The notes beneath the pieces are model-generated. The model ran no database searches. It was not told the origin of the DNA and saw only the letters and a program-made list of their open reading frames with translations. 32,000 nucleotides of DNA from Gemmata obscuriglobus (GTDB taxonomy: Bacteria; Planctomycetota; Planctomycetia; Gemmatales; Gemmataceae): the NCBI RefSeq assembly GCF_008065095.1, contig NZ_CP042911.1, positions 2,190,001 to 2,222,000 of the forward strand. The letters run 5' to 3'. Within the stretch, counting starts at the first letter, position 1. Every line of letters begins with the position of its first letter. The position numbers and the translations under genes are program-made. Shown here in pieces: positions 6,200-23,987 of the stretch.

Positions 6200-7258
6200 T
6201 CAATAGCGGCCGATCAGTTCGACCGTGAGCCGCTGGTTGATGATGTCGTTGCGGCTCGTCAGCGGGAACTCGAGCGCGAAGCCGACCGTGTACTTGTTGG
6301 TGAGCACCGCCTTGGCACCGAGCGCGGCGGTCACGAGGTGCGCCCCGGCCTGCCCGCGGGTACCCAGGTTCAGCAGCCCGTCGCCCTCGCCGAACACCGG
6401 GGGCAGACGGTTGCCGCCGCTCGTGTACCAGAACCAGTTCAGCTCCGCCAGCGGGTAGAACCAGCCGAACAGTTGCTTGTCCACGTGGAAGCTGTTCCAG
6501 ATGTAGCTCGAGCCCTGCGAGCTCTTCAGCGGGAAATAGTACCCGGTGGTTTGCAGGTAGTGCCACTTGTTGCCGAACTCTTTGCCGTAGGTGACGAACG
6601 GGGCGAACGAGCCCGACCCCTGGTTCTGCTGCACCTTCGCCTCGCCGCTGGGGATCTCGTATAGGAACCCGAACGCGGCCAGGGTCTGGTTCTCCACGTC
6701 GCGGTAGAAGGTGTACTTGAGCCCGGCCGCCAAGTTCAGGAACCCGGTCGTCGAGGGGCCGTTGCGGGGCGAGATGTGCGCGAGCCCGTCCTTGTCGGCG
6801 ATGATGCTGAGCCGCTCGGTGACGGCGAGGTTCATTTGCAGCGCGTACGCCTGAATGTTGCCGTCGAGCGGGTGACCGCCCGGGACGTTGTTGTTGATGA
6901 ACAGTATTCGCGCGTGCGAGTTCGACCGCGGGTCCTTGTTCAGGATGGGGTTGGACACCGGGCCGACGAAGTCGTCGAACTCGTGGTCGCTCTGGAACAG
7001 CCGGCGCACCGGCTTGGTGCATTCGTCGGACAGTGCCGGGACTGTGCCGACCGGGGGGGGGTAGCCGGGGGCGGCGTATCCCGGCCCCGGGGGTGGGGCA
7101 GCTACCGCGGTTCCGGAGTAGCCCTGCGCGGGCGGAGCCGCGTCTGCGTACCCCGAGATCGGGAGCGTCTGGTAGCCCTGCGCGGGCGGTTGTTGGTAGG
7201 CCGGGTCGGCGCCGACCGAACCGGCGGCGAGCAGGGCGCTGAGCGCGAGGGTGTTCAT
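6200..7258 (-). CDS. Putative outer-membrane beta-barrel protein with Pro/Gly/Tyr-rich N-terminal linker
   Basis: Start set at MNTLALSALLAAGSVGA (signal-peptide-like; CAT at 7256-7258 on +). A low-complexity PAQGY/PGYPPP region follows. After that come alternating amphipathic Tyr/Gly-rich strands and a C-terminal aromatic residue (..VELIGRY), as in barrel proteins. The family is not identified. Confidence 0.6.
   Translation of the reverse strand: MNTLALSALLAAGSVGADPAYQQPPAQGYQTLPISGYADAAPPAQGYSGTAVAAPPPGPGYAAPGYPPPVGTVPALSDECTKPVRRLFQSDHEFDDFVGPVSNPILNKDPRSNSHARILFINNNVPGGHPLDGNIQAYALQMNLAVTERLSIIADKDGLAHISPRNGPSTTGFLNLAAGLKYTFYRDVENQTLAAFGFLYEIPSGEAKVQQNQGSGSFAPFVTYGKEFGNKWHYLQTTGYYFPLKSSQGSSYIWNSFHVDKQLFGWFYPLAELNWFWYTSGGNRLPPVFGEGDGLLNLGTRGQAGAHLVTAALGAKAVLTNKYTVGFALEFPLTSRNDIINQRLTVELIGRY
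7053..7061 (-). repeat. Homopolymeric G9 (C9 on the coding strand) inside the barrel-protein ORF
   Basis: Read directly as ccGGGGGGGGGt. It encodes the PPP of ..GYPPPVG... Confidence 0.95.
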
Positions 7259-7444
7259 CCGTGAGTTCCGATTGGAGTAACCGTCAGGCGACCGTGCGCG
7301 ACGGCAGCGGGGCGAGTCCGTGCCCCGTGTAAGGAATATCGGAGCTGCTTGTCGGGAAGTGAGGGGGGAAACGCGTTGTGGCAGATCGAAGACGTGTGCC
7401 GTGAATCGGCTGTACGGGCTGTGAGGCCGGTGATGATTTGGCAC

Positions 7445-7503
7445 AGTGCCGCATACGGCGATTGCTGTGCGGATCTGGCACAGCAATCGCCGTGTGCGGC
7501 ACT
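7445..7503 (-). terminator. Long hairpin immediately downstream of metG
   Basis: 26-nt arms (7445-7470 / 7478-7503) with one non-Watson-Crick position and a 7-nt loop GGATCTG. It begins 6 nt after the metG stop. There is no clear U tract on the minus strand. Confidence 0.55.
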
Positions 7504-7508
7504 CCCAC

Positions 7509-9068
7509 TCAGCCGATGCGCGGGAACAGCGGCTTCAGCTTACCGTCGATCAGTTCGGCAGTGATGCGCAGGTCGTCAGCCTGGGCCTTTAATTCGGCAG
7601 CATCGGCGTATTTCACCTCCGCCCACGGCGTCGGGAAGTTGAAACTCGTGTAGATCGCCTCCGCACTCTTGGGGATGAACGGCTTCAACAGGATGCTGGC
7701 GATGCGGAGCGACTGCACCGCGTTGAACAGCACCTTCTTGGCCGCGTCCTTGTCGGTCTTCACGAGCTTCCAGGGGGCGTTGGCTTCGAGGTACTGGTTC
7801 GTCGGCGTGAGGAAGTCCTGAACGATCTTCTGAAGCGCCAGGTTGTACCGGCACGCCTCGACGTGCTCCCGCACCTCGCCCACGAACAACTTCAGGTCGA
7901 GACCCGGAACCACGGGATCGGGCGTCACCCCCGCGGTCCCGGTGAACACCCCCTCGAAGTTTTTGAAGGTGATCGTGAGCTCGCGCGACAGCATGTTCCC
8001 GAGGTTGTTCGCCAACTCGGAGTTGTAGACCTCTTCGTACCGCTGCCCGCTGTAGTCGCCGTCGGACGGGAACGGGCACTCGCGCATGAAGTAGTAGCGG
8101 TACGCGTCCGCGTTCGACTTCGCGATGATCTCCATCGGGTCAACAATGTTGCCGAGGGTTTTGCCCATCTTCTGGCCGTTGTTGTTCACGAACCCGTGGG
8201 AGAACACCTTGCGCGGCGCTTCCTCGCCCGCGGCCCAGAGCATCGCGGGCCAGATGTGCGTGTGGAACCGCGTGATGTCCTTGCCGATGAAGTGAACGTC
8301 CGCGGGCCAGTGCTTGCGGAACGTCGCCTCGTCGTCGCCGTAGCCGATGCCGGTGATGTACGTCAGCAGCGCGTCGAACCAGACGTAGATGGTGAACTCC
8401 GGGTCGAACGGGAGCTTGATGCCCCACTCCTCGCCGTGCCGCGAGATGTTGAGGTCTTGCAGCCCTTCGGCCTCAATGAACCCGATCATCTCGTTTCGCC
8501 GGCTCTCCGGCTGCACGAACTCGGGGTTACCCTTCAGGTGCTCCAGCAGCCGATCTTTGAACGCCGACAGCTTGAAGAACCAGCACGGCTCGGACCGGCG
8601 CACGAGCGGGCGCTTGTGGTTCGGGCACAGCCCGCCGCTCTCCGCGTGGACCTTGTCGCTCTTGAACTCCTCGCACCCGGGGCAATACCAGCCCTCGTAG
8701 CTGCCCTTGTAAATGTAGCCGTTGTCGTACACCTTCTGGACGAACTTGCGGCAGCACTGCTTGTGCCGCTCGTGGCTCGTCTGGACGAAGGTATCGTAGC
8801 TGATGTCGAGGGCGTCCCACACCTCGCGGAACTGACGGGCCATGTCGTCGCAGTACGCCTGCGGCTCCTGCCCGAGCGACTTGGCGCGGTCGGCGACCTT
8901 GAGGGTGTTCTCGTCGTTGCCCATCAGGAAGAAGACGTCGTACCCCTCCATCCGCCGGTACCGGGCCTGCACGTCCGCGCCGAGCTTCTCGAACGCGGTG
9001 CCGATGTGCGGCCGGCTGTTCGGGTAGTCGATGGCGGTGGTCTGGAACCAGCGGGGCTTGTCGGTCAC
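7509..9068 (-). CDS. metG: Methionine--tRNA ligase
   Basis: GTG start preceded by GGGAGA. The HIGH-type motif is present (NSRPHIGTAF), as is the KMSKS-type motif (QKMGKTLGN) and a Cys knuckle (CPGCEEF...CPNH). Overall similarity is to class I MetRS. Confidence 0.9.
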   Translation of the reverse strand: MTDKPRWFQTTAIDYPNSRPHIGTAFEKLGADVQARYRRMEGYDVFFLMGNDENTLKVADRAKSLGQEPQAYCDDMARQFREVWDALDISYDTFVQTSHERHKQCCRKFVQKVYDNGYIYKGSYEGWYCPGCEEFKSDKVHAESGGLCPNHKRPLVRRSEPCWFFKLSAFKDRLLEHLKGNPEFVQPESRRNEMIGFIEAEGLQDLNISRHGEEWGIKLPFDPEFTIYVWFDALLTYITGIGYGDDEATFRKHWPADVHFIGKDITRFHTHIWPAMLWAAGEEAPRKVFSHGFVNNNGQKMGKTLGNIVDPMEIIAKSNADAYRYYFMRECPFPSDGDYSGQRYEEVYNSELANNLGNMLSRELTITFKNFEGVFTGTAGVTPDPVVPGLDLKLFVGEVREHVEACRYNLALQKIVQDFLTPTNQYLEANAPWKLVKTDKDAAKKVLFNAVQSLRIASILLKPFIPKSAEAIYTSFNFPTPWAEVKYADAAELKAQADDLRITAELIDGKLKPLFPRIG

Positions 9069-9143
9069 GGCTCGTCTCCCTGCGTCGCAATCTAGCTGTT
9101 CTACAGACGCGATCGGGGCGGAGCAGGTTCAGAAGGGGGCGGA

Positions 9144-9677
9144 TCAGGGCGGGAAGAACAGGCCCGGGCCGCCGAGGTTCCACTGCTGGCCTTCGAGATG
9201 CAGTTGCCCGGCGTTGGCGAGCAACAGGTGCAACCCGATGAGCACGAAGTACCCGCTGTAAGCCTGGGCCGGGGCCTGGAGCACCTTCGCCACCATCGTC
9301 AGCGGGCCGGACGTGGCCCCCGTGTGCCGGTCCCGCAGTTGCACGTCGAACTCGGCCAGCCGGCACGGGATGTCGATGTTCGCGAACGGATCGCGCCACG
9401 TCAGGAATCGGGTCGCCGGTTCCGCGGGGATCGGCCGGCCGTGCTGGACGCGGGGCACCGGGTTGGGGACGGCGATCGGCCGGAGCGCGGCCCCGATTCC
9501 GATCGCGACCGCCTGGCTGACGACGGACACCGGCGCGCCGGTGTCGAGAAAGGTGTACGGTTGCAGGCCCCGCGCGCCCGCGAGTTCGACCCGCAAGGTC
9601 GGTCGGGTGGCGACGAGCGGACCCCACGAAACCGTCTGGTACTCGATAACGTCCGGCTGAAGGGCGAACCACGGCAT
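9144..9677 (-). CDS. Retropepsin-like (clan AA) aspartic protease domain protein
   Basis: Start set at MPWFALQPDV (CAT at 9675-9677). The catalytic signature is hydrophobic-hydrophobic-D-T-G-A (YTFLDTGAPVSVV), and a later VLIGLHLL segment resembles the retropepsin ILGxDxL element. The 96 codons upstream in the listed ORF are Arg/Gly/Pro-rich and overlap the next gene. Confidence 0.65.
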   Translation of the reverse strand: MPWFALQPDVIEYQTVSWGPLVATRPTLRVELAGARGLQPYTFLDTGAPVSVVSQAVAIGIGAALRPIAVPNPVPRVQHGRPIPAEPATRFLTWRDPFANIDIPCRLAEFDVQLRDRHTGATSGPLTMVAKVLQAPAQAYSGYFVLIGLHLLLANAGQLHLEGQQWNLGGPGLFFPP

Positions 9678-9682
9678 CGGCG

Positions 9683-9940
9683 CTACCACCCGATCCAGGT
9701 GCGGGATTCCATCGTGGCGACCGCGCAGACGACGACGACATCGAGCGCCACGCCCAACCGCTCCGCGCCCGTACGCCGAACGGCCTCCGGGTCCTGGCCG
9801 TGGGCGATCACCTCGCCCTGAAACCGGCCGTTGTGTTGGCGGGCGACCGCGACGACCCAGTTCCCGCCGTAGCGGCCCGCCACATCGGGGTCGTACTGTG
9901 CCCAATCCGCGCCGGCGACTGTCAGGTTGTGTTCGGCCAT
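9683..9940 (-). CDS. Small (85 aa) hypothetical protein, possibly DUF5678-like, co-transcribed with the protease gene
   Basis: Start at MAEHNLTV (CAT at 9938-9940). The stop TAG lies 5 nt before the protease ATG. The segment RYGGNWVVAV..GEVIAHGQDPEAV recalls the 'GKWVAI..G.VV..G.D..E' pattern of DUF5678 (from memory, not verified). Confidence 0.5.
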   Translation of the reverse strand: MAEHNLTVAGADWAQYDPDVAGRYGGNWVVAVARQHNGRFQGEVIAHGQDPEAVRRTGAERLGVALDVVVVCAVATMESRTWIGW

Positions 9941-10611
9941 GGTCCTGCCTCGACCGGGGCGGCAACGTGTTGGAAACAGTAAGTACACTGGCTCACAAAC
10001 TCAAGCAGAAACGTGAAGAGTTTCATGAAGAATGTGTGATCCCCATACGGATTATATCGGCTTGAGTCTAGAATGCTACCTATCGTTTTTCGCACCTTCT
10101 GCGGCGCGGTGGCGGCTGGAATCGGTTCCTGTCCGAAAAGACGGAGCCATGAGCCAAATCGGATGTTGCCGCAATCGCCTCTGAAATAATCAGTCGTGGC
10201 ACGAACGCCGAACGGAACTCGAACCACGCGCTGTTCGCGCGGGGCGTTGTGCCGGTTCGTGTGTGCAATTCGTCGGTAGCGAGCCACACATCAAATAGCT
10301 CGCGAGCCGCCCGGGGCCACCGATCGCGCGGAGCAGGGCGGCTTCTTTGTCCGTTGTCCCTGCACCACTTACCGCCTGTTGCGGTTGCCCCGCGCGACTT
10401 TTTCGCCTGCACTCGAACATTCACGCGGGAGCGTAACGTTGAGATTCCTTTACCGTGTTCACAGCTATTTACGCTTTCGTTCCCTGCTATTGCGCGTGGC
10501 ATGAACTACGGTCCGAGCAGATTCGGGTGAGCGCCTGACGCCCCAATTTCCAGGGTTGCCGTCGCTGAGTAGTTTCAGCGGTCGGCGTCATCTCCAAACG
10601 CGATCAACAAC

Positions 10612-13600
10612 ATGAACTGGATCGACTCTCTCCGCTCCCGCCTCCGACTCGCGATCCGCCCCAACCGAAATGTCCTCCCGGCGCTCCGCCCACGCCTCGC
10701 ACTGACCTGCCTCGAAGACCGTGTGGTGCCCGCGACCCGCGTCTGGGACGGCGGCGGCAGCGCCGACAGCCTCTGGTCGACCGCCGCAAACTGGTCGACC
10801 GATGTCGCTCCCGTCGATAACGATGACCTGACATTCCCCACCAACGGCGTCAGATACAATCCGTTCAATGACTTCACGAACGCGACGTTCGGGACGATCG
10901 TGTTCGGCGACTACGGCTACAGCGTCGCAGGCAACCCGCTCAACCTGACGGGCGGGATCACGACCACTTATAGCGGAGCCGTGCCCTCGTCGCTCAACAC
11001 GGACATCACGCTACTCGCCGACGTGACCATGAGCATCAGCGGCGGCGGTTTCGGCCTCGGCGGGGCCGTCAGCGATGGCGCGGGGACGTTCGGCCTGACG
11101 AAGACCGGCGCCGGGACGCTGACCCTGTCCGGGACCAACACCTACGACGGCAGCACCACGATCAACGCGGGCGTGCTGCAGGTGGACGGGACGATCTCGA
11201 GCGCGGTGGTTCTTGCGGGGGGCACGCTGAGCGGTTCGGGCACGCTCAACGGTTCCGGGATCACGGCCTCGTCGGGCGCCGTCGATCCGGGAACAGTCGG
11301 CGGGACCGGGATCTTGACGTACGCGAACGCGACCGGGCTCGCCCTTGCGTCTGGCACGACGCTCCACATCGACCTCAACGGGTCGACCGTCGGAACGGGT
11401 TACGATCGACTGGCGCTCACCAACAGCTCCGCCCTCTTCAACCCGAACGGCGCGACCCTGGACGTTAGCCTCGGTTACCTGCCGACGGTGGGCACCAGCT
11501 TCCAGATCGTCTCGCAGACGTATGCGTCCCCGATTACCGGGCGGTTCAACGGCCTCAGCCAGTTTGCCAGCTTCACCTCCGGCCCGGTAACGTTTAGTAT
11601 CGGCTACTTCAATTCGGGCGTGGTCCTGACGGTCACGAACGTCACGATCCCGACCTTCACCTGGGACGGCGGCGACGCCGACGACAGCCTGTGGTCGTCG
11701 CCCGACAACTGGGTCGGCGACGTTGCGCCTTCGCAGCCCAGCCATCTTGTTTTCCCGACTGGCGCCCTGAGGCTCACGAACACCAACGACCTCGCCGCCG
11801 GTTCTCAGTTCTCTTCGCTGACCGTCGGGGATGCGGGTTACGCCCTGAGCGGCAACGCGATCAACCTGCTCGGTGGGCTGCAAACCACTTACGCTTCAGG
11901 GAACTCGACGGTCTCGCTGCCGCTCGCGTTGCAATCGTCGAGCACGTTTAACGTTGCCACCGGCGGCGCGCTCGACCTGTCCGGGGCAATCTCCGGAACC
12001 GGCTTCGGCGTCACCAAGACCGGCGGCGGTACGCTCCGCTATTCGGGCGCCGGCGCGAACACCTACACGGGCGCGACCACCGTCAACGACGGCCTGCTCG
12101 AGCTCAACAAGACGGCCGGCGTGAACGCGTTCGCGGGGGATCTGGTCGTCGGTGACAGTTCCGGCCCCGACGCCGTCACGCTCCTGGCATCGGACCAGAT
12201 CCCCGACGCCGCTTCTGTGACTCTGGCCACGGGTGCGACGCTCAACCTGAGCAACTTCGATGACGCCATCGGCGCCCTGAATCTCACCGGAGCCACGGTC
12301 GCCACCGGCACCGGGACCCTCACCCTGGGCGGGAACGTCACCACCAACTCCGACACGGTCACCTCCGTCATCTCGGGCAACCTGGACCTGGGCGGGGCGA
12401 CCCGCACCTTCACGGTGGCCAACAACGCCCAACTCGACCCCGACCTGAGCATCACGGCCAACATCAGCGGGACCGGCGCGGGGCTCATTAAGGCTGGTGC
12501 CAACAGTCAACTCCTGCTATCGGGGAACAACACCTACGACGGCATCACCACGATCACCGCGGGGGCCATCGAGATCGCCAGCGACAACGCTCTGGGCGCG
12601 GCGTCGGCCGGGACGGTCGTCAACAGCGGGTTCTCGCTGGCCCTGCTGGGCGGCATCACGGTGCCCGAGCCGATCACCATCAACGGGGTGGGGTTCGGCG
12701 GCCTGGGGGCGGTCTTCAACGGGAACGGCAACAACACCATCTCCGGCGCGCTCACGCTCGGGGCCAACAGCACCATCGGCTCCCTGAGCGGCACCCTGAC
12801 GTTCAGCGGCGCGATCAGCGACGGCGCCAGCAGCTACGCCCTCACCAAGGTCCAGTCGGGCACGGTGGCCTTCTCCAGTGCGAACACCTACGACGGCGGC
12901 ACGACCATCAGCGGCGGCGTGATCGCGATCAGCAACGGCGCGGCACTCGGCACGGGCCTGGTAACGGTCGGCAACACCGGGTCGCTGGACCTGAGTGGCG
13001 GGATCACGCTGACCAACGCCATCACTCTCAACGGCGTGCCTGTCACCAACCGGAGCAAGATCAACAGCGTCTCGGGAAACAACATCATTCAGGGCAACGT
13101 CGGGATCACCGGGGGCAACAACGTTGCCTTCGATGTGGCCGGCGGCACCGCGCTGACGGTCTCGGGGGCCATCAGCGGCTCCCCCGATTTCGACAAGAAC
13201 AGCACCGGGACGCTGGTCCTCACGGGCACGAGCACCCACACGGGCAACGTGAACGTCAACGACGGCACGCTGATCGTCAACGGTTCGCTCGCCACCAGCA
13301 ACGTGGTCTTCGTCGACGGCACCCTCGGGGGCACGGGCACGCTCCCCGCCGTGACGGTCTCAAGCATCGGTACGCTGGCGCCCGGCAACTCACCGGGCGC
13401 CCTGAATACGGGGGACCTCGCCTTCCAGAGCAGCGGCTCGACCTACGCCGTCGAACTCAATGGGTCGATCGCCGGCACCCAGTATGACCAGACCAACGTC
13501 ACCGGCACGGTGACCCTGGCCGGCGCGACACTCAGTCTGTCCATTGGTTACGCGCCCACCGTCGGGACCACGTTCGCCCTGATTAATAACGACGGCTCCG

Positions 13601-15872: not shown

Positions 15873-15879
15873 CAGTGCT

Positions 15880-15902
15880 TTTCAGGGTGGGCCGCTCACG
15901 CC
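15880..15902. repeat. Palindromic element GGCCGCTCAC-GCC-GTGAGCGGCC (copy 1)
   Basis: Perfect 10-bp arms with a 3-nt spacer. It shares the core CCGCTCAC-N3-GTGAGCGG with 16008-16026. Confidence 0.8.
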
Positions 15903-16007
15903 GTGAGCGGCCGCTTCGCACATCGGATCGGATCCGCGGGCGGGTGGGTCCCACACCGCTTTGAACCGCCAGGACCTCACGCGAAGCCGGTCTGGCGTGC
16001 AGACCGA

Positions 16008-16026
16008 CCGCTCACGGAGTGAGCGG
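16008..16026. repeat. Palindromic element CCGCTCAC-GGA-GTGAGCGG (copy 2); possible terminator of the minus-strand oxidoreductase gene
   Basis: Perfect 8-bp arms with a 3-nt spacer. It lies about 35 nt downstream (minus strand) of the stop at 16062. Confidence 0.7.
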
Positions 16027-16061
16027 ACCACCCTCAACAACACACGCATTCCGCCCCGTTT

Positions 16062-18236: not shown

Positions 18237-18950
18237 ATGTCGCTCCAGCGCTTCCCGCACGTCCCGGGATTGCTGTTCGATCCCACCTATTTTGCTCCCC
18301 CGGAATGCGCCGGCCTGCTGGCGCACTCGCTCCGCCTGTACGAGCGGCTTGAAGTCGCGGTTGGGGAGGGCGGCGCGTCCGAGCAGGCGCACATCCCGCA
18401 ACCCGCCTACGTCCGCAGTGCAGACCACAACCTCGCGAGCGAAGAACGCTTCGTGCGCGTGGCCCTTAGCGAAGCCCAGGGGCGCACGATCCGGGCCGAG
18501 TACTTTCCGCGGTACGGTGAAGACGGTCACTCGCTGGGGTACTTCCAGCGGGATGCGAACCTTCCCGATTTCGTTCGCGATGAATTGGTGCCGGGCGTTC
18601 ACGGGCTCGTGGCGTCCGAAGGGCTCGTGACCCCCGAGCAAGAGCTGACGTGGAAGCTCACCGCCAACTTCTACCGCCGCGCGAACGGCCGGGTCGCGGG
18701 GTTCCCGTTCCACGTCGACATCCCGTCGAACGGCGTGGTGACGATGATCTTGAACGTTCAGCGGGAGGCGCTGTTCCAGATCGCGAAGGGCGGCGCGGTG
18801 ACCGACATCATGCTGCCGGTCGGGGCGCTGCTCTTGCTGAGCGGTGAGAGCCGGTACGAGTGGAAACACCGGGTTCTGCCGTCCGAAGCCCCCTCCGGTC
18901 GCGCGGGACATCCGGTGGAACGGGTGTCGCTGGTGCTCGGGTATCAGTAG
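18237..18950 (+). CDS. 2OG-Fe(II) oxygenase, AlkB-like
   Basis: Start set at MSLQRFPHVPGLLF. The HxD iron ligands are present (FPFHVDIPSNG), followed by LLLLSGESRYEWKHRV (distal His plus Arg), as in AlkB-family dioxygenases. Confidence 0.6.
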   Translation: MSLQRFPHVPGLLFDPTYFAPPECAGLLAHSLRLYERLEVAVGEGGASEQAHIPQPAYVRSADHNLASEERFVRVALSEAQGRTIRAEYFPRYGEDGHSLGYFQRDANLPDFVRDELVPGVHGLVASEGLVTPEQELTWKLTANFYRRANGRVAGFPFHVDIPSNGVVTMILNVQREALFQIAKGGAVTDIMLPVGALLLLSGESRYEWKHRVLPSEAPSGRAGHPVERVSLVLGYQ

Positions 18951-18951
18951 A

Positions 18952-18970
18952 GCCGCGCCCGCGGCGCGGT
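18952..18970 (+). terminator. Short GC hairpin after the AlkB-like gene
   Basis: 8-bp stem (GCCGCGCC / GGCGCGGT, including one G-U pair) with a 3-nt loop, followed by CGCGTTTGGG. It starts 2 nt after the stop. Confidence 0.35.
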
Positions 18971-19061
18971 CGCGTTTGGGCCGGGAAGGCGTCCGGCGCG
19001 AACGTGTGTGGGTGATCGGCGGTCCGTGCCACTGGTGGCTGGCACAGGGCGAGAGCCGGTA

Positions 19062-19253
19062 TCACCCGCTCGCGGCGGGCGGTTCCTCGTCCGGCGCGTC
19101 GAGCTTGATCCCGCGCTTCGCGAGCGCCTGGCGCAGGATGAACTCGATCTGCCCGTTCAGGCTGCGCAGGTCCTCTTCGGCCCACCGCTGGACGGCGGCG
19201 TGGACCTTCGGATCGAGCCGCAGCAGGAACGGCTTCACTTCCTTCTTGGCCAT
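19062..19253 (-). CDS. Arc-like ribbon-helix-helix DNA-binding protein (63 aa)
   Basis: Start set at MAKKEVKPFLLRLDPKVHAAVQRWAEEDLRSLNGQIEFILRQAL (CAT at 19251-19253). The pattern 'LRLP..L...L...A....RS.N.EI...L' is the Arc/Mnt-type RHH signature. Confidence 0.75.
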   Translation of the reverse strand: MAKKEVKPFLLRLDPKVHAAVQRWAEEDLRSLNGQIEFILRQALAKRGIKLDAPDEEPPAASG

Positions 19254-19335
19254 GACGTGCCGAAGGACGACCGCGCGGGCGACGCAGCCGGCTGCGTCGC
19301 CCTTCGCCCCGCCCTTCGTCCTCACGAGAGGGGAG

Positions 19336-20271
19336 TTAGTTGTACAGCGTGCCGGTGTTCAGCACCGGTTGCGGCACCGCGTGCCCGCACAGCACCACCA
19401 GGAGGTTGCTCACCATCGCGGCCCGGCGCTCCGGGTCCAGTTCGACCACGTTCCGCTCTTTCAGCAGGTCCAGCGCGCTCTCGACCATCCCGACCGCGCC
19501 GGCCACGATCTGCGACCGGGCCGCGACGATCGCCCCGGCCTGCTGGCGCTGGAGCATCGCCGCCGCGATCTCGCGGGCGTAGGCCAGGTAGCTGATCCGC
19601 GCCTCGAGCACCTCCACGCCGGCCAACTGCATCCGCGTGTGCAGCTCGTGCTTCAGTTGCGTGGCCACTTCCTCGATGTGCCCGCGGAGCGAGTGCGCGT
19701 CGCTGTCGGGCGCGTCGTAGCTGTACCGGCTCGTGAGGCTGCGGAGCGCGGCGTCGGCCTGGAGCTTCACGAACTCCTCGTAGTCGTCCACCTGGAAAAC
19801 CGCCTCCGTCGGGTTCACCACCTTCCACAGCACCACCGCGGAGATCTCGATCGGGGTGCCGTCCTTGTCGTTCACCTTGATCGGCTCGCGGTGGGTGCTC
19901 GCCGGCACCAGCACCGTCCCCGCGGCGTCCTTCTTCTCCTCGGTCTTGTTCATGCCGGTCTCGAACGTCCGCACCCGCAAACTCACCCGGGTGCGCCAGT
20001 ACAGCGGGTTGCCGTAGAAGAAGCCGGTCCGCCGCACCGTGCCGACGTACTTGCCGAACAGTTGCACCACCCGCGCCTGGTTCGGCCCGTTCACGATGAA
20101 CCCGGCCCACGCGAACAGCCACAGCAGCGACAGCGGCACGATGGCCCACACGAGCCGGGGCTCGTGCCACTGTGCGGAGTAGGTGATCAGTGCGATCACC
20201 GCGCCCAGCCACACGAGCATCCCGAACAGCGCCAGCCAGCCGGAATTCAGTTTCAGCTCACGGTCTTCCAT
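19336..20271 (-). CDS. SPFH/Band 7 (stomatin/slipin-like) membrane protein
   Basis: Two N-terminal hydrophobic helices are followed by an SPFH core (..QARVVQLFGKYVGTVRRTGFF.., ..ISAVVLWKVVNPTEAVFQV.., ..LAGVEVLEARISYLAYAREIAAAM..). Confidence 0.85.
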   Translation of the reverse strand: MEDRELKLNSGWLALFGMLVWLGAVIALITYSAQWHEPRLVWAIVPLSLLWLFAWAGFIVNGPNQARVVQLFGKYVGTVRRTGFFYGNPLYWRTRVSLRVRTFETGMNKTEEKKDAAGTVLVPASTHREPIKVNDKDGTPIEISAVVLWKVVNPTEAVFQVDDYEEFVKLQADAALRSLTSRYSYDAPDSDAHSLRGHIEEVATQLKHELHTRMQLAGVEVLEARISYLAYAREIAAAMLQRQQAGAIVAARSQIVAGAVGMVESALDLLKERNVVELDPERRAAMVSNLLVVLCGHAVPQPVLNTGTLYN

Positions 20272-20293
20272 GGCAGGAGTCTCCGATACTGTT

Positions 20294-20303
20294 GTGATAT
20301 CAC
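20294..20303. promoter_or_regulatory. Perfect 10-bp palindrome GTGATATCAC upstream of the SPFH gene (candidate operator)
   Basis: Read directly. It lies 23 nt upstream (minus-strand sense) of the SPFH start at 20271, in the 128-nt divergent spacer shared with the lipoate ligase-family gene. Confidence 0.35.
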
Positions 20304-20399
20304 TTTGAAATCGTACTCTCTGCCTGAGTGTTCGCCAAGCGCGGCGGTCGATTTCGGCCGATCACCGCGAAATCGCGGGGGCGGGGATAAAATGCCGGT

Positions 20400-21137
20400 A
20401 TGAGCCAAACCATCCGCCTGTTACCGTTTGCCGGCGCCGACGGCGCCACGAACATGTCCGCCGACGAAGCGCTTTTGGAATCGGCGTCCAGCGGCGTCGC
20501 GTCGCTGCGGTTCTACACCTGGAGCGAGCCCACGCTGTCGCTCGGTTACTTCCAGCGGGCCAACGAACGCGCCGCCGACGCGAACCTCGCGCGGCTGGCG
20601 TGGGTCCGTCGCTCGACCGGCGGCGCGGCCATCGTTCACCACCACGAACTGACCTACGCCCTCGCGTTGCCGCCGGGAAAGGAGTGGGCGTCCGCCGAGC
20701 ACTGGATTTGCCTGATGCACCACATCGTCCAGCGCGTCCTGCGCGCACACGGGGTGGAGACGCACGCGGTGGTGTGCGGCGAGGAGCAGAAGCTCGGCCC
20801 GGTGGTCTGCTTCCTGCACCAGACGCCGGGCGACTTGCTGCTGAACGGGTCGAAGGTGGCCGGGAGCGCGCAGCGAAAGATGAAGGGCGCGCTCCTTCAA
20901 CACGGCAGCATCTTGTTGCGCCGCAGCGAGTTCGCCCCCGCACTCGGTGGGATCTGTGACGCGGACGGGGCGCCCGTGTTCGACCCCGAATCGCTCGCGA
21001 AGCTGATCGCGGAGGCGTTTGCGGCGGACACCGGTTGGACGTTGACGCCCAGGGACTGGACCGTCACGGAGCAGGAGCGCACGGCGGCGATTCGGGCCGA
21101 GAAATACGCCCACCCGGACTGGAACGAGAAACGGTAG
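20400..21137 (+). CDS. Lipoate-protein ligase / octanoyltransferase family protein (BPL/LPL catalytic domain)
   Basis: ..RFYTWSEPTLSLGYFQ.., ..VRRSTGGAAIVHHHELTY.. and the conserved lysine context KVAGSAQRKMKGALLQHGSILL are typical of LplA/LipM-type enzymes. Ligase versus transferase cannot be decided by eye. Confidence 0.75.
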   Translation: MSQTIRLLPFAGADGATNMSADEALLESASSGVASLRFYTWSEPTLSLGYFQRANERAADANLARLAWVRRSTGGAAIVHHHELTYALALPPGKEWASAEHWICLMHHIVQRVLRAHGVETHAVVCGEEQKLGPVVCFLHQTPGDLLLNGSKVAGSAQRKMKGALLQHGSILLRRSEFAPALGGICDADGAPVFDPESLAKLIAEAFAADTGWTLTPRDWTVTEQERTAAIRAEKYAHPDWNEKR

Positions 21138-21193
21138 ACCGGCCGGTCGTGGATTCGTTTCGGCCCACGCGGGCCTCGTGTTTATGAAGGCAG

Positions 21194-21274
21194 ATTTTGA
21201 CAGGATCGACAGGATAAACAGGATTTTAAATTGATCGGTCTTCATCCTGTTTATCCTGTCGATCCTGTCAAAAT
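21194..21274. repeat. AT-rich perfect inverted repeat (31-bp arms, 19-nt loop) with 9-nt internal periodicity
   Basis: The left arm is ATTTTGACAGGATCGACAGGATAAACAGGAT (21194-21224) and the right arm is its exact reverse complement (21244-21274). Each arm contains ACAGGAT three times at 9-nt spacing. It lies 57 nt after the ligase-family stop and 100 nt before the next start. Confidence 0.95.
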
Positions 21275-21374
21275 TGCCTTGGCGCCTTCGTGCCACATTG
21301 CCCGCGGCTGGCCGCGCCCCGTGCGTGGGCGCACTCCGCCCCGCGTTCTCAACGACTTCTCCGATGTGGGGCGT

Positions 21375-22463
21375 ATGAGCGAGTCGCGTTACACCGTTCG
21401 GCAGTTGGGTTGGTATCAGCCGCCGCACGGCGACCCGTACACGCGGCGCGTGCCCACGGCGGTGCCGGTCGCGGGGTTCGACACGTTCGACGCCGCGGAA
21501 GAACACCGACGAGAACTCGAAGCGGGCGCCCGCGTGGGCGAGAACCCGTTCCGGTTCGGCGGGTGCTCGGTCTTCTTTCAGTCGTCGCTCGACGGGATGC
21601 GGCTCCACGACTGGCTCATGGACGAGGGCATCGACCCGCCCGCCAGCGAGCTGCGTCACGGCGACTGGCACGAGTGGTGGGCCGCGTTCGCGCACACCTG
21701 GACCGAAGGCCAGCTCCACCACGCCTGGAGCGCGTTCGACAAGGTCCGGTTCTTCGACGTGATCGAGGAGCCGCAGAGCGTCGCGCACGCGGTGATCGAA
21801 ATTGTGTGGGGCCTGCTGGAGCGCGACTGGAACGCGATGACCGCCGGCACGGAGGGCGGCCGGCTGATGGGCGTGTACCGGCGAACGGCGCGGGCCGAAC
21901 GGTTCCGGGCCGAACTGAGCCGCGACCGCAACGCGGGCGGCGGGCGCTACCGGTACGACCGGCGCGCCGGGTACTCGGCCGACCCGCACAACCCGATCCC
22001 GGCTCGTCAGGCGACGTTTTACGAAGCGCTGGCGGTGCCGTCGGACGTGCCGCCGTTCGCGGGCGTCGGGTACCTGGTGCAGCGCCGCGCCGTGATTGAC
22101 ACCTTTGCGGGGACGGTGTGGCGGACCCGCCCGCCGGCCGACGCGCGCGTTCCGGTGGCGCTGTACGCGTCGCGGTCGGACGCGATCGAGCACCGCGACC
22201 GGCTCGCCGCGGAGAGCCGGCAGGTGTTGAACCCGTTCGTCTTCGCCGACCCGGCCCACGGCGCGGCGACGGAAGGCGCCCGGGAGGAGCTGGCCGCCCT
22301 CGAACTCCCGCTGCCGGTCCCGTCCGGGGACCGCCGCCGCGACTGGATCGAGTGGTGGGACCTGTGCCAGGAGGACGTGTCCGACGAGCAGCGCGCGGCG
22401 GTGTGGCGGGCGTGCGACCAGCCGATGTTCGAGGTGCTGCGCGTGGAGGTGGCCGATGAGTGA
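21375..22463 (+). CDS. Hypothetical protein P1 (362 aa), module architecture A-B-A; family unknown
   Basis: Start set at MSESRYTVRQLGW. The listed ORF start at 21231 lies inside the palindrome loop. The N-terminal half is paralogous to P2 and the C-terminal third to P3 (see findings). Confidence 0.7.
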   Translation: MSESRYTVRQLGWYQPPHGDPYTRRVPTAVPVAGFDTFDAAEEHRRELEAGARVGENPFRFGGCSVFFQSSLDGMRLHDWLMDEGIDPPASELRHGDWHEWWAAFAHTWTEGQLHHAWSAFDKVRFFDVIEEPQSVAHAVIEIVWGLLERDWNAMTAGTEGGRLMGVYRRTARAERFRAELSRDRNAGGGRYRYDRRAGYSADPHNPIPARQATFYEALAVPSDVPPFAGVGYLVQRRAVIDTFAGTVWRTRPPADARVPVALYASRSDAIEHRDRLAAESRQVLNPFVFADPAHGAATEGAREELAALELPLPVPSGDRRRDWIEWWDLCQEDVSDEQRAAVWRACDQPMFEVLRVEVADE

Positions 22464-23148
22464 CCCCGACCGGTTCGTGGTTCGGCGGATCGATTGGGCG
22501 CGATCCGAGTACGGCGAACCGTACGCGCGTCGAACCCCGCGAACCGAGCGCGTGGCAGCGTTCGACACGTTCGACGCTGCCGAGGACGATCGCGCGGCGC
22601 GCGAGGCCGCCGAGCGGGCGCGTGCGAACCCCTTCTGGTACGGCGGGGAGTCGCTGTTCTACCAAACGTCGCTCGACGCCCCGCGCCTACACGATTGGCT
22701 GATGGATGTGGGCATCGACCCGCCGGCCGCACCCCAGGCGCACGCCGGGTGGGCCGCGTGGTGGGATACGGCTGCGCCGACGTGGAGCGCGGAGCAGTTG
22801 GCACACGCGTGGAAGGCGTTCGACAAAATACAGTTCTTCGAGGTGTCGGAGCGGCGGTCGGGACCGAAGGGGTACGTCATCGTGGAACTGCATTGGAAGT
22901 GGGAGGACGAATCGACACTCGAAGCTGACTATGAGGGCGGGCTCGCCGTCCGTGCCTTCCGCTCGCGAGAGCGGGCCGAGGCCGAGTGCGCCCGATTGAA
23001 CCTTGAGCGCCAAAGTCGGCCCGATCACAACGGGTACAGTTCGTTCACCCGCTCCACCCGTTACGGAGGCGAGACCGAAGGGCCACGCGGCATGGCCGAC
23101 ACCCTGTTCTTCGAGGTCGTGGAGATCGACCTGGGGGACGATGCGTGA
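22456..23148 (+). CDS. Hypothetical protein P2 (230 aa), architecture A-B; paralog of P1
   Basis: The ATG overlaps the P1 stop (ATGAGTGA, 22456-22463), with GGAGGTGG 4 nt upstream. It aligns with the P1 N-half through FDTFDAAE, NPF, RLHDWLMD.GIDPP, W..WW and AW.AFDK..FFEV. Confidence 0.75.
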   Translation: MSDPDRFVVRRIDWARSEYGEPYARRTPRTERVAAFDTFDAAEDDRAAREAAERARANPFWYGGESLFYQTSLDAPRLHDWLMDVGIDPPAAPQAHAGWAAWWDTAAPTWSAEQLAHAWKAFDKIQFFEVSERRSGPKGYVIVELHWKWEDESTLEADYEGGLAVRAFRSRERAEAECARLNLERQSRPDHNGYSSFTRSTRYGGETEGPRGMADTLFFEVVEIDLGDDA

Positions 23149-23534
23149 GCGGCACCGCGTTCCTGGTGGTGCGCCGGGCGCTGACCGCGGGCGGCGCCGG
23201 CTGCGGGGACCAGTTCGTGTCCGACACCGGCTCGCGCGTCCCGCTGCGGTTGTTCGTGACCCGCGTCGCAGCCGAGGCACACGCTTCGGCGTTGGGTACG
23301 GCCGCGCGATCGACCGTGAGCCCGTTCACACATGTCACTGTGAGTGACTCGCTCGCTGCGAGCTTGCGCGCGCTCGGGTTTCCTGTTGAGTGTCCGGACG
23401 ATCCGTGGGACGAAGAGTGGCGGGTGTGGTGGGACCTGTGCCAGGATTTGATCACGGTTGAGCAGCGGGCCGCGGTGTGGGAATTGTTCGCAGAAATGCC
23501 ACTGTTCGAGGTGCTGGAAGTCGAGTTGGAGTGA
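23145..23534 (+). CDS. Hypothetical protein P3 (129 aa), single module A; paralog of the P1 C-terminus
   Basis: The GTG start overlaps the P2 stop (GTGA, 23145-23148). The C-terminal ..EEWRVWWDLCQDLITVEQRAAVWELFAEMPLFEVLEVELE mirrors P1 ..DWIEWWDLCQEDVSDEQRAAVWRACDQPMFEVLRVEVADE. Confidence 0.7.
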   Translation: MSGTAFLVVRRALTAGGAGCGDQFVSDTGSRVPLRLFVTRVAAEAHASALGTAARSTVSPFTHVTVSDSLAASLRALGFPVECPDDPWDEEWRVWWDLCQDLITVEQRAAVWELFAEMPLFEVLEVELE

Positions 23535-23987
23535 CCCCGTGCCAGACTTCACCAAGTCGGGAACCCGGAACTGGGGCGCGGTGCCATCTGGTGAGTATGG
23601 GGCTTGGCCGGGCGCGCGGTGCGAACCGGATGACCGAAGCCATCCAGGTGGCGCGAACGGGAAAAGCTCGCGCGCGTTGTAACGGGGGTTACAGTGCGAC
23701 ACACGCAGCCGGCTCAGTGGGGTTCCGACGGGTCATTCGCTGCCGTTGAGCTACCAAGTCGCTACCTGATTGCTGGTCGGTCGCTACCACGGAATCGCGC
23801 CCGCAAAACCCGGATAATGCTCCCGGACGAACGGAACGCCGCTTCGGTATGGAATGGGATTTGCGCTGCAACATGTGATTGCGGAACAGGTTGCAGCGTG
23901 TGTGATTTGATACGCGGTTCCGCCTTCTCGGGCGGGAGCCGGCGCCGGTGGCCGCGACAGAGCCGTGAAATCGGCCGCGAACTGGTA

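Follow-up and report, generated by a model that had tools for sequence, protein, structure and literature searches.

Analysis of a 32,000-nt stretch of Gemmata obscuriglobus DNA (the window) revealed that three coupled genes, P1, P2 and P3, form two tandem N-B-C units, the first fused in P1 and the second split at the B/C linker into P2 and P3. The encoded proteins belong to an undescribed and sizeable family of 555 clusters at 50% identity, which is restricted to the Gemmataceae. Directly upstream of the first family gene, on the same strand, lies a gene for a transferase of the lipoate-protein-ligase fold, an arrangement found in 17 loci including the window. A functional tie of any kind between the P1 family and this transferase is a tentative but serious possibility, which makes P1 a concrete candidate acceptor, carrier or adaptor in protein lipoylation, with a new fold. 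The features of the locus are listed in Table 1.

Table 1. Features of the P1-P2-P3 locus and its flanks, numbered from the first nucleotide of the window.
Feature	Position	Strand	Description
LplA-fold catalytic domain, LipM-like, stand-alone (transferase)	20400-21137	+	245 aa; Pfam match
Terminator-like stem with T-rich tail, weak	21162-21175	+	just past the transferase stop; consensus scan
Palindrome (giant hairpin)	21194-21274		between transferase and P1; perfect 31-nt arms
P1	21375-22463	+	362 aa; fused N-B-C unit
P1 modules	N 21375-21773; B 21780-22052; C 22053-22460	+	
K123 codon AAG	21741-21743	+	sole P1 lysine, motif AFDKVRFF
P2	22456-23148	+	230 aa; N-B half of the second unit
P2 modules	N 22468-22854; B 22873-23127	+	
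P3	23145-23534	+	129 aa; C module of the second unit; GTG start
Spacer, P3 to convergent hemA	23535-23987	.	453 nt; not part of the system

The ORF coordinates agree with the three same-strand frames and the lengths given by the first-pass annotation. The P1 stop and the P2 start overlap by 8 nt (ATGAGTGA at 22456-22463), and the P2 stop and the P3 start share the 4 nt GTGA at 23145-23148, both as described before. The SD-like patches reported ahead of the two downstream genes were also found, as GGAGGTG for P2 and GGGGGA for P3, 6-7 nt before the start codons. These patches double as codons for conserved C-terminal strand residues. The three frames have GC3 values of 0.81-0.92 and are therefore coding; the antisense ORFs overlapping P1-P3 were rejected as spurious, as coding-type GC3 is confined to the frames of P1, P2 and P3. 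No hydrophobic segment is present (maximum KD19 below 1.0), in line with the reported lack of a signal peptide or TM helix, and P3 is 100% identical to G. obscuriglobus GobsT_19120. P1, P2 and P3 are real, cytoplasmic, acidic and non-enzyme-like proteins.

Alignment of P1 residues 1-221 with P2 gave an E-value of 6e-45, and alignment of P1 residues 228-359 with P3 gave 1e-21, confirming the suggested paralogy of the P1 N-terminal half with P2 and the mirroring of the P1 C-terminal third by P3. Cross-module matches were found as well (P1-N against P3, E=4e-7; P2 against P3, E=1e-7). The N and C modules are homologous with an HHalign probability of 97.8% (E=1.2e-12) and both adopt a beta-beta-alpha-(three Trp-rich helices)-beta arrangement. 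The shorter unit B was correctly recognised, since the P1/P2 alignment runs through it and the B profile matches both proteins. B looks like a bare module core without the helical insert. That B is a degenerate A core is suggestive only, the HHalign alignment being in the same register at a non-significant probability of 8-12%. The A-B-A / A-B / A architecture proposed earlier is replaced by two tandem N-B-C units with the second one split, which fits better; by the module alignments, P2 and P3 combined correspond to one P1. Other loci of the family contain 1-3 units each, with the array in L030 reaching 6 genes; fused and split forms of the unit both occur among them, and the -8/-4/-1 stop/start overlaps recur. 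Translational coupling of paralogs built from a repeated module is thus supported, and a multi-subunit assembly, also suggested before, is plausible because the overlaps are conserved across loci and P2 plus P3 equal one P1. The locus illustrates cleanly how a gene unit can be duplicated and one copy then divided into two halves that stay translationally coupled.

In the AF2 models each module is alpha/beta and contains 4 helices; the P1 model has a pLDDT of 82.6 and a pTM of 0.75, and the P3 model a pLDDT of 92.7. The overlaps together with the pTM of the three-module P1 support a defined assembly. Foldseek searches of the PDB with the models of whole P1 and the single-module P3 gave nothing below E=0.9, and a fold search of BFVD returned only uncharacterised phage proteins (best E=1.6e-4, TM 0.54). 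Conservation in the N module is highest in two loops, residues 14-24 and 62-74, whose pLDDT values are below 50, as would be expected for a partner interface.

The genes had been called orphans, but 78 close homologs were found, and an exhaustive profile search gave the 555 clusters. All named members are from the Gemmataceae; a scan of genome contigs with a single protein recovered 2 loci, and a metagenome scan 18. The statement that no named family applies still stands, as Pfam, NCBIfam, PADLOC and PHROGs searches with P1, P2 and P3 gave only noise, and a PDB sequence profile search gave 0 matches at E<=10. Among 50 diverse members the weak Pfam matches (SPOR, Ish1, Cauli_VI) were all sub-threshold. 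Longer family members were considered as fusions to known domains and turned out to carry extra modules or miscalled N-termini instead. The idea that the N module contains a metal or catalytic site was also rejected, since the conserved His residues of P1 orthologs are lost in distant members. P1 has clean 1:1 orthologs in a housekeeping neighbourhood, and its dN/dS of 0.05 against G. algarum indicates strong purifying selection. Neither the locus tags nor lipoylation in Gemmata yielded anything in a literature search. Gemmata already attracts interest for its unusual cell biology, and even if the transferase link is false, a sizeable undescribed family is defined here, with a confident model and no fold match in the PDB.

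The array had been thought to have no enzyme partner next to it, which the directly upstream, same-strand transferase gene contradicts. Its product matches Pfam LplA-B_cat (4.5e-19, residues 14-173) and BPL_LplA_LipB (2.7e-14), and contains neither a C-terminal accessory domain nor any further domain beyond LplA-B_cat. In the PDB, the sequence is matched best by lipoate-protein ligases, among them the bipartite LplA of Thermoplasma acidophilum, and these matches end at the catalytic domain. Residues C137 and K152, 15 residues apart, are invariant in 11 orthologs. A sequence that we take to be B. subtilis LipM aligns with the transferase from end to end (E=5e-27, a lead only), and its presumed C150 and K165 are in register with C137 and K152; the alignment with LplA gave 1.4e-4. 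Sources label the homologs as 'lipoate--protein ligase family', 'lipoyl(octanoyl) transferase' or 'lipM', and NCBIfam gave only sub-threshold matches to LplA_large, lipoyltrans and LplAB (38 bits; cutoff 480). With 5758 matches, the transferase subfamily is far more widespread than the P1 family. Members of this transferase family are known for one type of reaction only, in which an acyl group is passed to a single lysine on an acceptor protein (PMC7253636, PMC10332631).

Across the 17 transferase-adjacent loci (the window, L001, L002/3, L004, L006, L007, L008, L009, L012, L013, L014, L016, L017, L019, L020, L026 and L029), P1 is between 98% and as little as 33% identical. Many further contigs, matched by length, are shared between the family matches and the transferase matches. 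The gap between transferase and P1 is 17-38 nt in six loci, and the two genes overlap in L026. The other neighbours, Band_7 and hemA, are retained less often than the transferase. No transferase lies near the P1 orthologs of L010 and L011, or near the distant members of L021, L027, L030, L031 and the contigs of P0091 and P0095. Within the window, the consensus scan that marked the terminator-like stem gave 4 sites against 2.6 expected, which is not significant alone. The large palindrome seen earlier upstream of the array was verified; each arm contains three ACAGGAT repeats at 9-nt spacing, and its folding energy is -60.7 kcal/mol (z -12.1). A giant hairpin separates transferase and P1 in the window and at least 7 other loci, and hairpins of different sequence occupy the same position in L006, L008, L017, L019, L020 and L029. 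Rfam searches of the flanks gave only chance miRNA-like matches, on the palindrome. The spacer downstream of P3, described before as unusually structured, folds no better than shuffled sequences (z = -0.85), has no Rfam match and is not conserved, the corresponding gap in L006 being 10 nt.

P1 contains 1 Lys and 41 Arg, and its orthologs a median of 2 Lys and 40 Arg, while K/(K+R) of the other genes in the window is 0.10-0.55. The single lysine K123 is kept in 61/61 P1 orthologs and is the sole lysine in 22 of the 61; D122 and V124 are present in at least 90%. Outside K123, lysine occurs 0.27 times per 100 aa in the P1 clade, compared with 1.5-1.75 in the rest of the family. The first copies adjacent to a transferase all carry Lys at this site (16/16), other copies carry Lys or Arg, and paralogs away from the transferase often have Arg. 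Since Lys and Arg replace each other here in paralogs, a positive charge is often enough at this position. In the AF2 models K123 is located between a helix and the last strand of the N module, in the motif (A/G)(F/L)DKV followed by aromatic and acidic residues. A DK[AV] core is common to natural lipoyl sites and the LplA acceptor peptides LAP and LAP2 (PMC8248378). The DKV likeness is a three-residue match only.

We propose that the N-B-C unit and the product of the gene directly upstream, the LipM/LplA-like octanoyl/lipoyl transferase, may function jointly. In the favoured mechanism, the N module of P1 would offer K123, which lies in the DKV turn ahead of its last strand, as a substrate; the transferase would octanoylate or lipoylate this lysine, making P1 an acyl-lysine acceptor or carrier. 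To our knowledge, the natural substrates of LplA, LipB, LipM and BPL are all lipoyl/biotinyl beta-barrel domains or GcvH. That the N module is a natural acceptor or carrier outside the lipoyl domains is, taken by itself, unlikely. Alternatively, P1 might dock on the transferase as a specificity adaptor; a role as adaptor or regulator is, in our estimate, likewise unlikely. P2 and P3 would assemble into a P1-like heterodimer, a split paralogous carrier, which would explain the conserved overlaps as enforcing equal stoichiometry. The transferase adjacency in 17 loci, down to 33% P1 identity, argues for a link, as do the sole invariant lysine, the lysine avoidance in the P1 clade, the Lys kept in all 16 adjacent copies, the DKV motif and the low pLDDT of the two most conserved N-module loops. 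In addition, many bacteria with LipM/LipA have no LipL, implying unknown relay components (PMC10332631). If the acceptor or carrier reading is true, the Gemmataceae would have either a protein newly recognised as lipoylated or acylated, or a lipoyl relay that does without GcvH, and P1 could be the missing component in LipM/LipA bacteria lacking LipL.

Several observations stand against the link. Co-transcription is no more than putative in the window and the at least 7 other loci where a giant hairpin intervenes, joined in the window by the weak terminator-like site; some P1 orthologs and distant members have no transferase nearby; the transferase subfamily works elsewhere without the P1 family; the fold bears no resemblance to that of a lipoyl domain, GcvH, ACP or LplB; Arg often replaces the lysine in paralogs, and the DKV match is short; and the adjacency all comes from one bacterial family, so gene order may have been inherited. 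In that case the family would be a non-catalytic module specific to the Gemmataceae, for protein binding or scaffolding and with a function unrelated to the transferase, which we consider somewhat unlikely. The restriction of all named members to the Gemmataceae, the many members in unrelated contexts, the hairpin or terminator-like elements between the two genes in many loci, the wide occurrence of the transferase without the family and the failure to find a fold or sequence link to lipoylation components are all consistent with inherited synteny. However, the transferase adjacency outlasts both other neighbours down to the lowest P1 identity, the short gaps and the stop/start overlap in one locus are less easily accommodated, and the invariant lysine with its clade-specific lysine avoidance would need a separate explanation.

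An array of immunity-like or anti-phage/anti-defence binders diversifying by tandem duplication is improbable. The copy number of 1-3 units, with 6 genes in L030, and the coexistence of fused and split forms would suit such a conflict system, as would the G. algarum DNA, which is 95% identical up to the P1 stop codon and diverges right after. In addition, DUF6915 (phrog_8143, E=2e-44) lies beside the arrays in L019, L022, L027/28 and L030, a large serine recombinase adjoins the L030 array, and the sole fold matches are uncharacterised phage proteins. Yet the low dN/dS, the 1:1 orthology and the housekeeping neighbourhood of P1 point the other way; no toxin, nuclease or defence domain is nearby, PADLOC gave no match, and a pattern scan of viral contigs did not find family members. 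The immunity/antitoxin idea raised by the first-pass annotation is therefore a poor fit for P1, there being no toxin domain in the window.

P1 could also replace LplB without being homologous to it, giving a bipartite ligase with the transferase. The transferase lacks the C-terminal domain, a single-sequence search ranks the bipartite LplA of T. acidophilum first among its solved relatives, it matches NCBIfam LplA_large weakly, and in bipartite ligases the accessory gene clusters with the catalytic gene (PMC10332631). This is nevertheless a very remote prospect, since a putative LipM/LipL-type Cys precedes the catalytic Lys of the transferase by 15 residues, an accessory domain is not required by transferases of the LipM type (PMC10332631), and P1 and P3 resemble neither LplB nor the C-terminal domain of LplA in sequence or fold. 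The alignment with the presumed LipM sequence is also far better than that with LplA. Finally, that P1-P3 are unexpressed high-GC ORF artefacts, as the GC-rich genome with long spurious ORFs on every strand might suggest and as absent homologs and absent purifying selection would have indicated to the first-pass annotation, can safely be dismissed in view of the GC3 restricted to their frames, the P1 dN/dS, the hundreds of homologs with invariant residues and the confident AF2 models of P1 and P3.

Comparison with known systems places P1 beside several of them in part. Like SPOR or RNase H1 N-terminal-like units, the modules have a beta-beta-alpha core and a 'V..F.....A' strand-helix motif; unlike them, they show only far sub-threshold matches (Pfam SPOR in 4/50 members, best E 0.036; Cauli_VI in 1/50), no signal peptide or periplasmic context and no Foldseek support. 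Polyimmunity arrays, such as the SUKH/Imm loci of polymorphic toxin systems, consist of tandem small alpha/beta domains. The family resembles these arrays in its tandem diverging paralogs, its fused or split multi-domain forms and its variable copy number, but differs in having no toxin partner and no immunity-family match, and in a lead copy, P1, that is under strong purifying selection and syntenic with housekeeping genes.

As in the bipartite LplA-LplB of T. acidophilum (PMC10332631 ref. 10), a catalytic domain without accessory domain has a small partner gene beside it, and P1 adjoins such a stand-alone LplA catalytic-domain gene in 17 loci. However, P1 is non-homologous to LplB and has another fold, and the transferase looks LipM-type. 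The accessory domain Lip_prot_lig_C gave no Pfam or NCBIfam match at E<=1 for P1, P2 or P3 and no Pfam match among 50 diverse members, and no ligase chain appeared in the Foldseek searches of P1 and P3 against the PDB, where LplA and LplA-LplB structures are deposited. From the engineered acceptor peptides LAP and LAP2 (DEVLVEIETDKAVLEVPGGEEE, GFEIDKVWYDLDA) it is clear that a lysine need not sit in a lipoyl domain to be acylated by LplA-fold enzymes (PMC8248378). They share with P1 AFDKVRFFDVIEE the order D-K-(A/V), then hydrophobic or aromatic, then acidic residues; unlike P1, both are artificial and were selected for E. coli LplA, and the short resemblance may be due to chance.

In the LipM-GcvH-LipL relay of Bacillus subtilis, LipM loads octanoate onto one GcvH lysine. 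GcvH is a small dedicated carrier, whereas P1 is a Gemmataceae-restricted three-module alpha/beta protein of ~40 kDa that resembles neither GcvH nor lipoyl domains in sequence or fold. The Pfam profiles Biotin_lipoyl and GCV_H matched neither P1, P2 and P3 nor 50 diverse members, and the flattened beta-barrel with a hairpin-tip lysine is not seen in the AF2 models. Similar to the relay, the upstream transferase consists of an LplA-fold domain on its own, in which C137 and K152 are a candidate LipM-like Cys/Lys pair, and P1 carries one invariant lysine in a DK[AV]-type motif, the type of site expected of an acceptor.

The genes P1, P2 and P3 of the Trp-rich module family have the coordinates and lengths reported in the first-pass annotation, which was largely right, and both of its stop/start overlaps, ATGAGTGA (P1/P2) and GTGA (P2/P3), were found in the sequence. 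GC3 in their own frames is 0.92, 0.81 and 0.82, respectively, and the codon-position profile is wrong for the long overlapping ORFs of other frames and of the opposite strand. P1 has a dN/dS of 0.05 against G. algarum (95% DNA identity) versus 0.21 for the neighbouring enzyme, indicating tighter constraint on P1. In-frame GC3, the selection on P1 and hundreds of homologs exclude artefact ORFs. P3 is 100% identical to G. obscuriglobus GobsT_19120. All three proteins are acidic (pI 4.5-5.3) with about 4% Trp, and hydropathy revealed no hydrophobic segment in any of them, as previously noted.

Features of the array and of related loci
Feature	Locus	Position	Strand	Description
Transferase	window	20400-21137	+	245 aa; Pfam LplA-B_cat and BPL_LplA_LipB
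Giant hairpin	window	21194-21274		between transferase and P1; 31-nt perfect arms, dG -60.7, z -12
P1	window	21375-22463	+	362 aa ORF
K123 codon AAG	window	21741-21743	+	motif AFDKVRFF
P2	window	22456-23148	+	230 aa ORF
P3	window	23145-23534	+	129 aa ORF
Giant hairpin	L006	3403-3514		between transferase and P1
Giant hairpin	L008	5886-5993		between transferase and P1
Giant hairpin	L017	4655-4765		between transferase and P1
Giant hairpin	L019	2432-2514		between transferase and P1
Giant hairpin	L020	1078-1217		between transferase and P1
Giant hairpin	L029	8685-8898		between transferase and P1
DUF6915	L019	6094-6438		beside/inside array
DUF6915	L022	1160-1504		beside/inside array
DUF6915	L027	7027-7371		beside/inside array
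DUF6915	L028	1976-2320		beside/inside array
DUF6915	L030	5849-6193		beside/inside array

The genes had been called orphans. However, close homologs of P1, 78 in number and each annotated 'hypothetical', occur in genomes and MAGs of Gemmata and Gemmataceae (identity down to 42%). An exhaustive HMMER search with an ortholog profile gave 555 clusters (50% identity) at E<=1e-3, of which 305 reach E<=1e-10; the named distant members, Fimbriiglobus and Urbifossiella, are likewise Gemmataceae. The array is an undescribed family, novel also in fold. Pfam, NCBIfam, PADLOC and PHROGs gave no meaningful match for P1, P2 or P3, a scan of 50 diverse members gave only sub-threshold SPOR and Cauli_VI matches on the strand-helix core, and a PDB sequence-profile search gave none at E<=10. 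Foldseek searches of the PDB with the confident AF2 models of P1 (pLDDT 82.6, pTM 0.75) and P3 (pLDDT 92.7) yielded nothing below E=0.9, bearing out the earlier remark that the module fits no named family. BFVD returned one weak match, to a phage protein that has no name (E=1.6e-4, TM about 0.5); several further phage proteins, small and uncharacterised, span the beta-beta-alpha-beta core. In the AF2 model, the full module runs from beta-beta-alpha through three Trp-rich helices to a closing strand; module B keeps the strands and helix without the helical insert, and its register matches the core, the homology falling short of significance.

The paralogy of the three proteins was upheld by BLASTP, with P1(1-221) matching P2 (E=6e-45, 40% identity), P1(228-359) matching P3 (E=1e-21), P1-N matching P3 (E=4e-7) and P2 matching P3 (E=1e-7), and by profile-profile comparison of the N and C modules (probability 97.8%, E=1.2e-12). 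Mapping of N, B and C profiles onto 31 loci showed that all arrays are (N-B-C)n, replacing the A-B-A / A-B / A architecture proposed before. L001, L002, L012 and L013 have a single unit; the window, L006 and L019 have two; L008 and L009 have three. B has been lost by deletion in the short P1 clade (L009, L010, L011, L029). In the mapped loci the first unit is without exception one fused gene, and later units are two genes cut between B and C. By these alignments, P2 and P3 together amount to one P1 divided within the 'PSDVPPFAGVG' linker. In the window, L006, L008, L009 and L015, the gene junctions repeatedly show overlaps of -8, -4 or -1 nt, which argues for coupled translation and probably an assembly of fixed stoichiometry. 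Copy number turns over rapidly: G. algarum JC673 (L004) shares 95% DNA identity over window 20368-22487 and diverges directly after the P1 stop codon (L004 2094-2400 versus window 22463 onward), where its sequence holds an N-type remnant that is truncated and different, as well as a hairpin and, on the opposite strand, what looks like a tRNA gene. Therefore, the P2/P3 slot varies among close relatives.

The best lead to the function of the array is the adjacent lipoyl/octanoyl transferase, overlooked when P1 was said to lack an enzyme partner. In the window and 16 further distinct loci it directly precedes, on the same strand, the first gene of the family, across P1 identities from 98% down to 33%, with gaps of 17-38 nt in six loci and the transferase stop overlapping the P1 start in L026. 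Other neighbours, Band_7 (upstream, opposite strand) and hemA (downstream, convergent), are retained less often. We tentatively propose that the family is functionally tied to this transferase. Counting against the tie, the P1 orthologs of L010 and L011 and many distant members have no transferase nearby, the transferase family is far broader than P1, a weak terminator-like site follows the transferase stop codon in the window, and large hairpins separate the two genes in several loci. A weaker though serious alternative is that the gene order was simply inherited and that the family has a binding role unrelated to the transferase. The palindrome reported upstream of P1 was recovered as one of these hairpins, which have stems of about 26-36 bp (dG -59 to -90 kcal/mol, z -7 to -14) and arms differing in sequence among loci, sharing an ACAG(G/A)AT-like motif with a period of roughly 9 nt; they are missing where gaps are 17-38 nt. 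They could be terminators/attenuators, mRNA-processing elements or REP-like elements. Long hairpins between genes seem to be common throughout this genome: at gene ends, the window has inverted repeats at 15875-16043 (69-nt arms, 3' of a 1740-aa ORF) and 7445-7503 (26-nt arms, separating two genes of the minus strand), and a perfect 16-nt palindrome at 2840-2872. The downstream spacer (453 nt), once described as structured, is not unusually so (fold z of -0.85), and it has no Rfam match and no conservation.

A conflict or immunity-like array is improbable. Copy number varies, four loci have a phage-family DUF6915/phrog_8143 gene next to their arrays, and in Urbifossiella a serine recombinase adjoins a six-gene array; however, P1 is under purifying selection, the array matches nothing in PADLOC, a pattern scan of viral contigs gave no member, and the context is housekeeping. 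The rest of the window is core chromosome (DHDPS, YidC, DJ-1, MetRS, a 1740-aa adhesin-like protein, Band_7, hemA, a cytochrome c assembly gene, an ECF-sigma/WD40 protein and DUF1559). A 519-aa ORF at 18844-20403 (+) was rejected as spurious; the real gene is Band_7/SPFH at 19336-20271 (-) (Pfam 2.6e-22, GC3 0.95), whose antisense mirror produced the tblastn 'conservation' of the ORF. The DUF6915 protein (115 aa, 73-83% identity over four independent loci, phrog_8143 E=2e-44) is not present in the window. The Urbifossiella limnaea CP036273 array (L030 4218-8844) has six same-strand genes, one of them encoding a four-module protein of 545 aa and another consisting of B alone (69 aa); a methyltransferase, DUF2924 and the large serine recombinase follow 3', so a mobile-element context may apply.

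The transferase consists of a catalytic domain alone. Among solved structures, its best relatives are lipoate-protein ligases, including the bipartite T. acidophilum LplA. NCBIfam matches lie far under cutoffs, and homologs are named 'lipoate--protein ligase family protein', 'lipoyl(octanoyl) transferase' or 'lipM'. C137 and K152 (in GSKVAGSAQ) are invariant and exactly 15 residues apart in 11 orthologs. B. subtilis LipM, in a sequence not drawn from a database and taken as a lead only, aligns end to end (E=5e-27), its presumed C150 and K165 in register with C137 and K152. In LipL the equivalent C150 is the acyl-enzyme residue (bioRxiv 10.1101/419234). LipM-type enzymes are LplA domains after loss of LplB (PMC10332631). 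A role of the family as a non-homologous LplB substitute is very unlikely. A 227-aa transferase form (P0325, P0327, P0329, P0331, P0336) is found together with the short P1 clade that lacks B (P0033-P0038, 320-332 aa), P0327 and P0034 sharing one contig; lineage or differing start calls may account for this. In one MAG (L029 1-3652), glycine-cleavage P-protein genes (GDC-P, GcvP2_C) lie a few kb upstream of transferase-P1 on the same strand. In L010, where P1 is away from the transferase, the genes convergent with it (7134-10959) are presumably fabF, acpP, fabD and plsX, judging from N-termini read by eye; their products are the source of octanoyl-ACP.

P1 contains 41 Arg and a sole Lys, K123. 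Its 61 orthologs have a median of 2 Lys versus 40 Arg, and all keep K123, which is the only Lys in 22; K/(K+R) of other window genes is 0.10-0.55. Outside this site, the P1 clade has 0.27 Lys per 100 aa, versus 1.5-1.75 for P2-like and distant members. Lys occupies the site in each of the 16 first copies next to a transferase gene, versus 9 Lys and 12 Arg in downstream or dispersed copies, these counts being phylogenetically non-independent. Retention of AAG in a GC-rich, Arg-preferring gene whose paralogs drift to Arg points to a requirement for the epsilon-amine itself. In addition, loops 14-24 and 62-74 of the N module, the most conserved and sole low-confidence parts of the model, are typical of a partner interface and may form one. 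For the proposed tie, we infer that P1 and the transferase would co-function and interact physically, with K123 as the acyl-lysine acceptor/carrier site modified by the enzyme; alternatively, P1 would be its adaptor. That a LipM-family enzyme has in P1 a natural acyl-lysine acceptor of a new kind is rather unlikely. Around K123, P1 shares with natural lipoyl sites and with the LplA acceptor peptides LAP and LAP2 a DK[AV] core that hydrophobic and acidic residues follow (PMC8248378).
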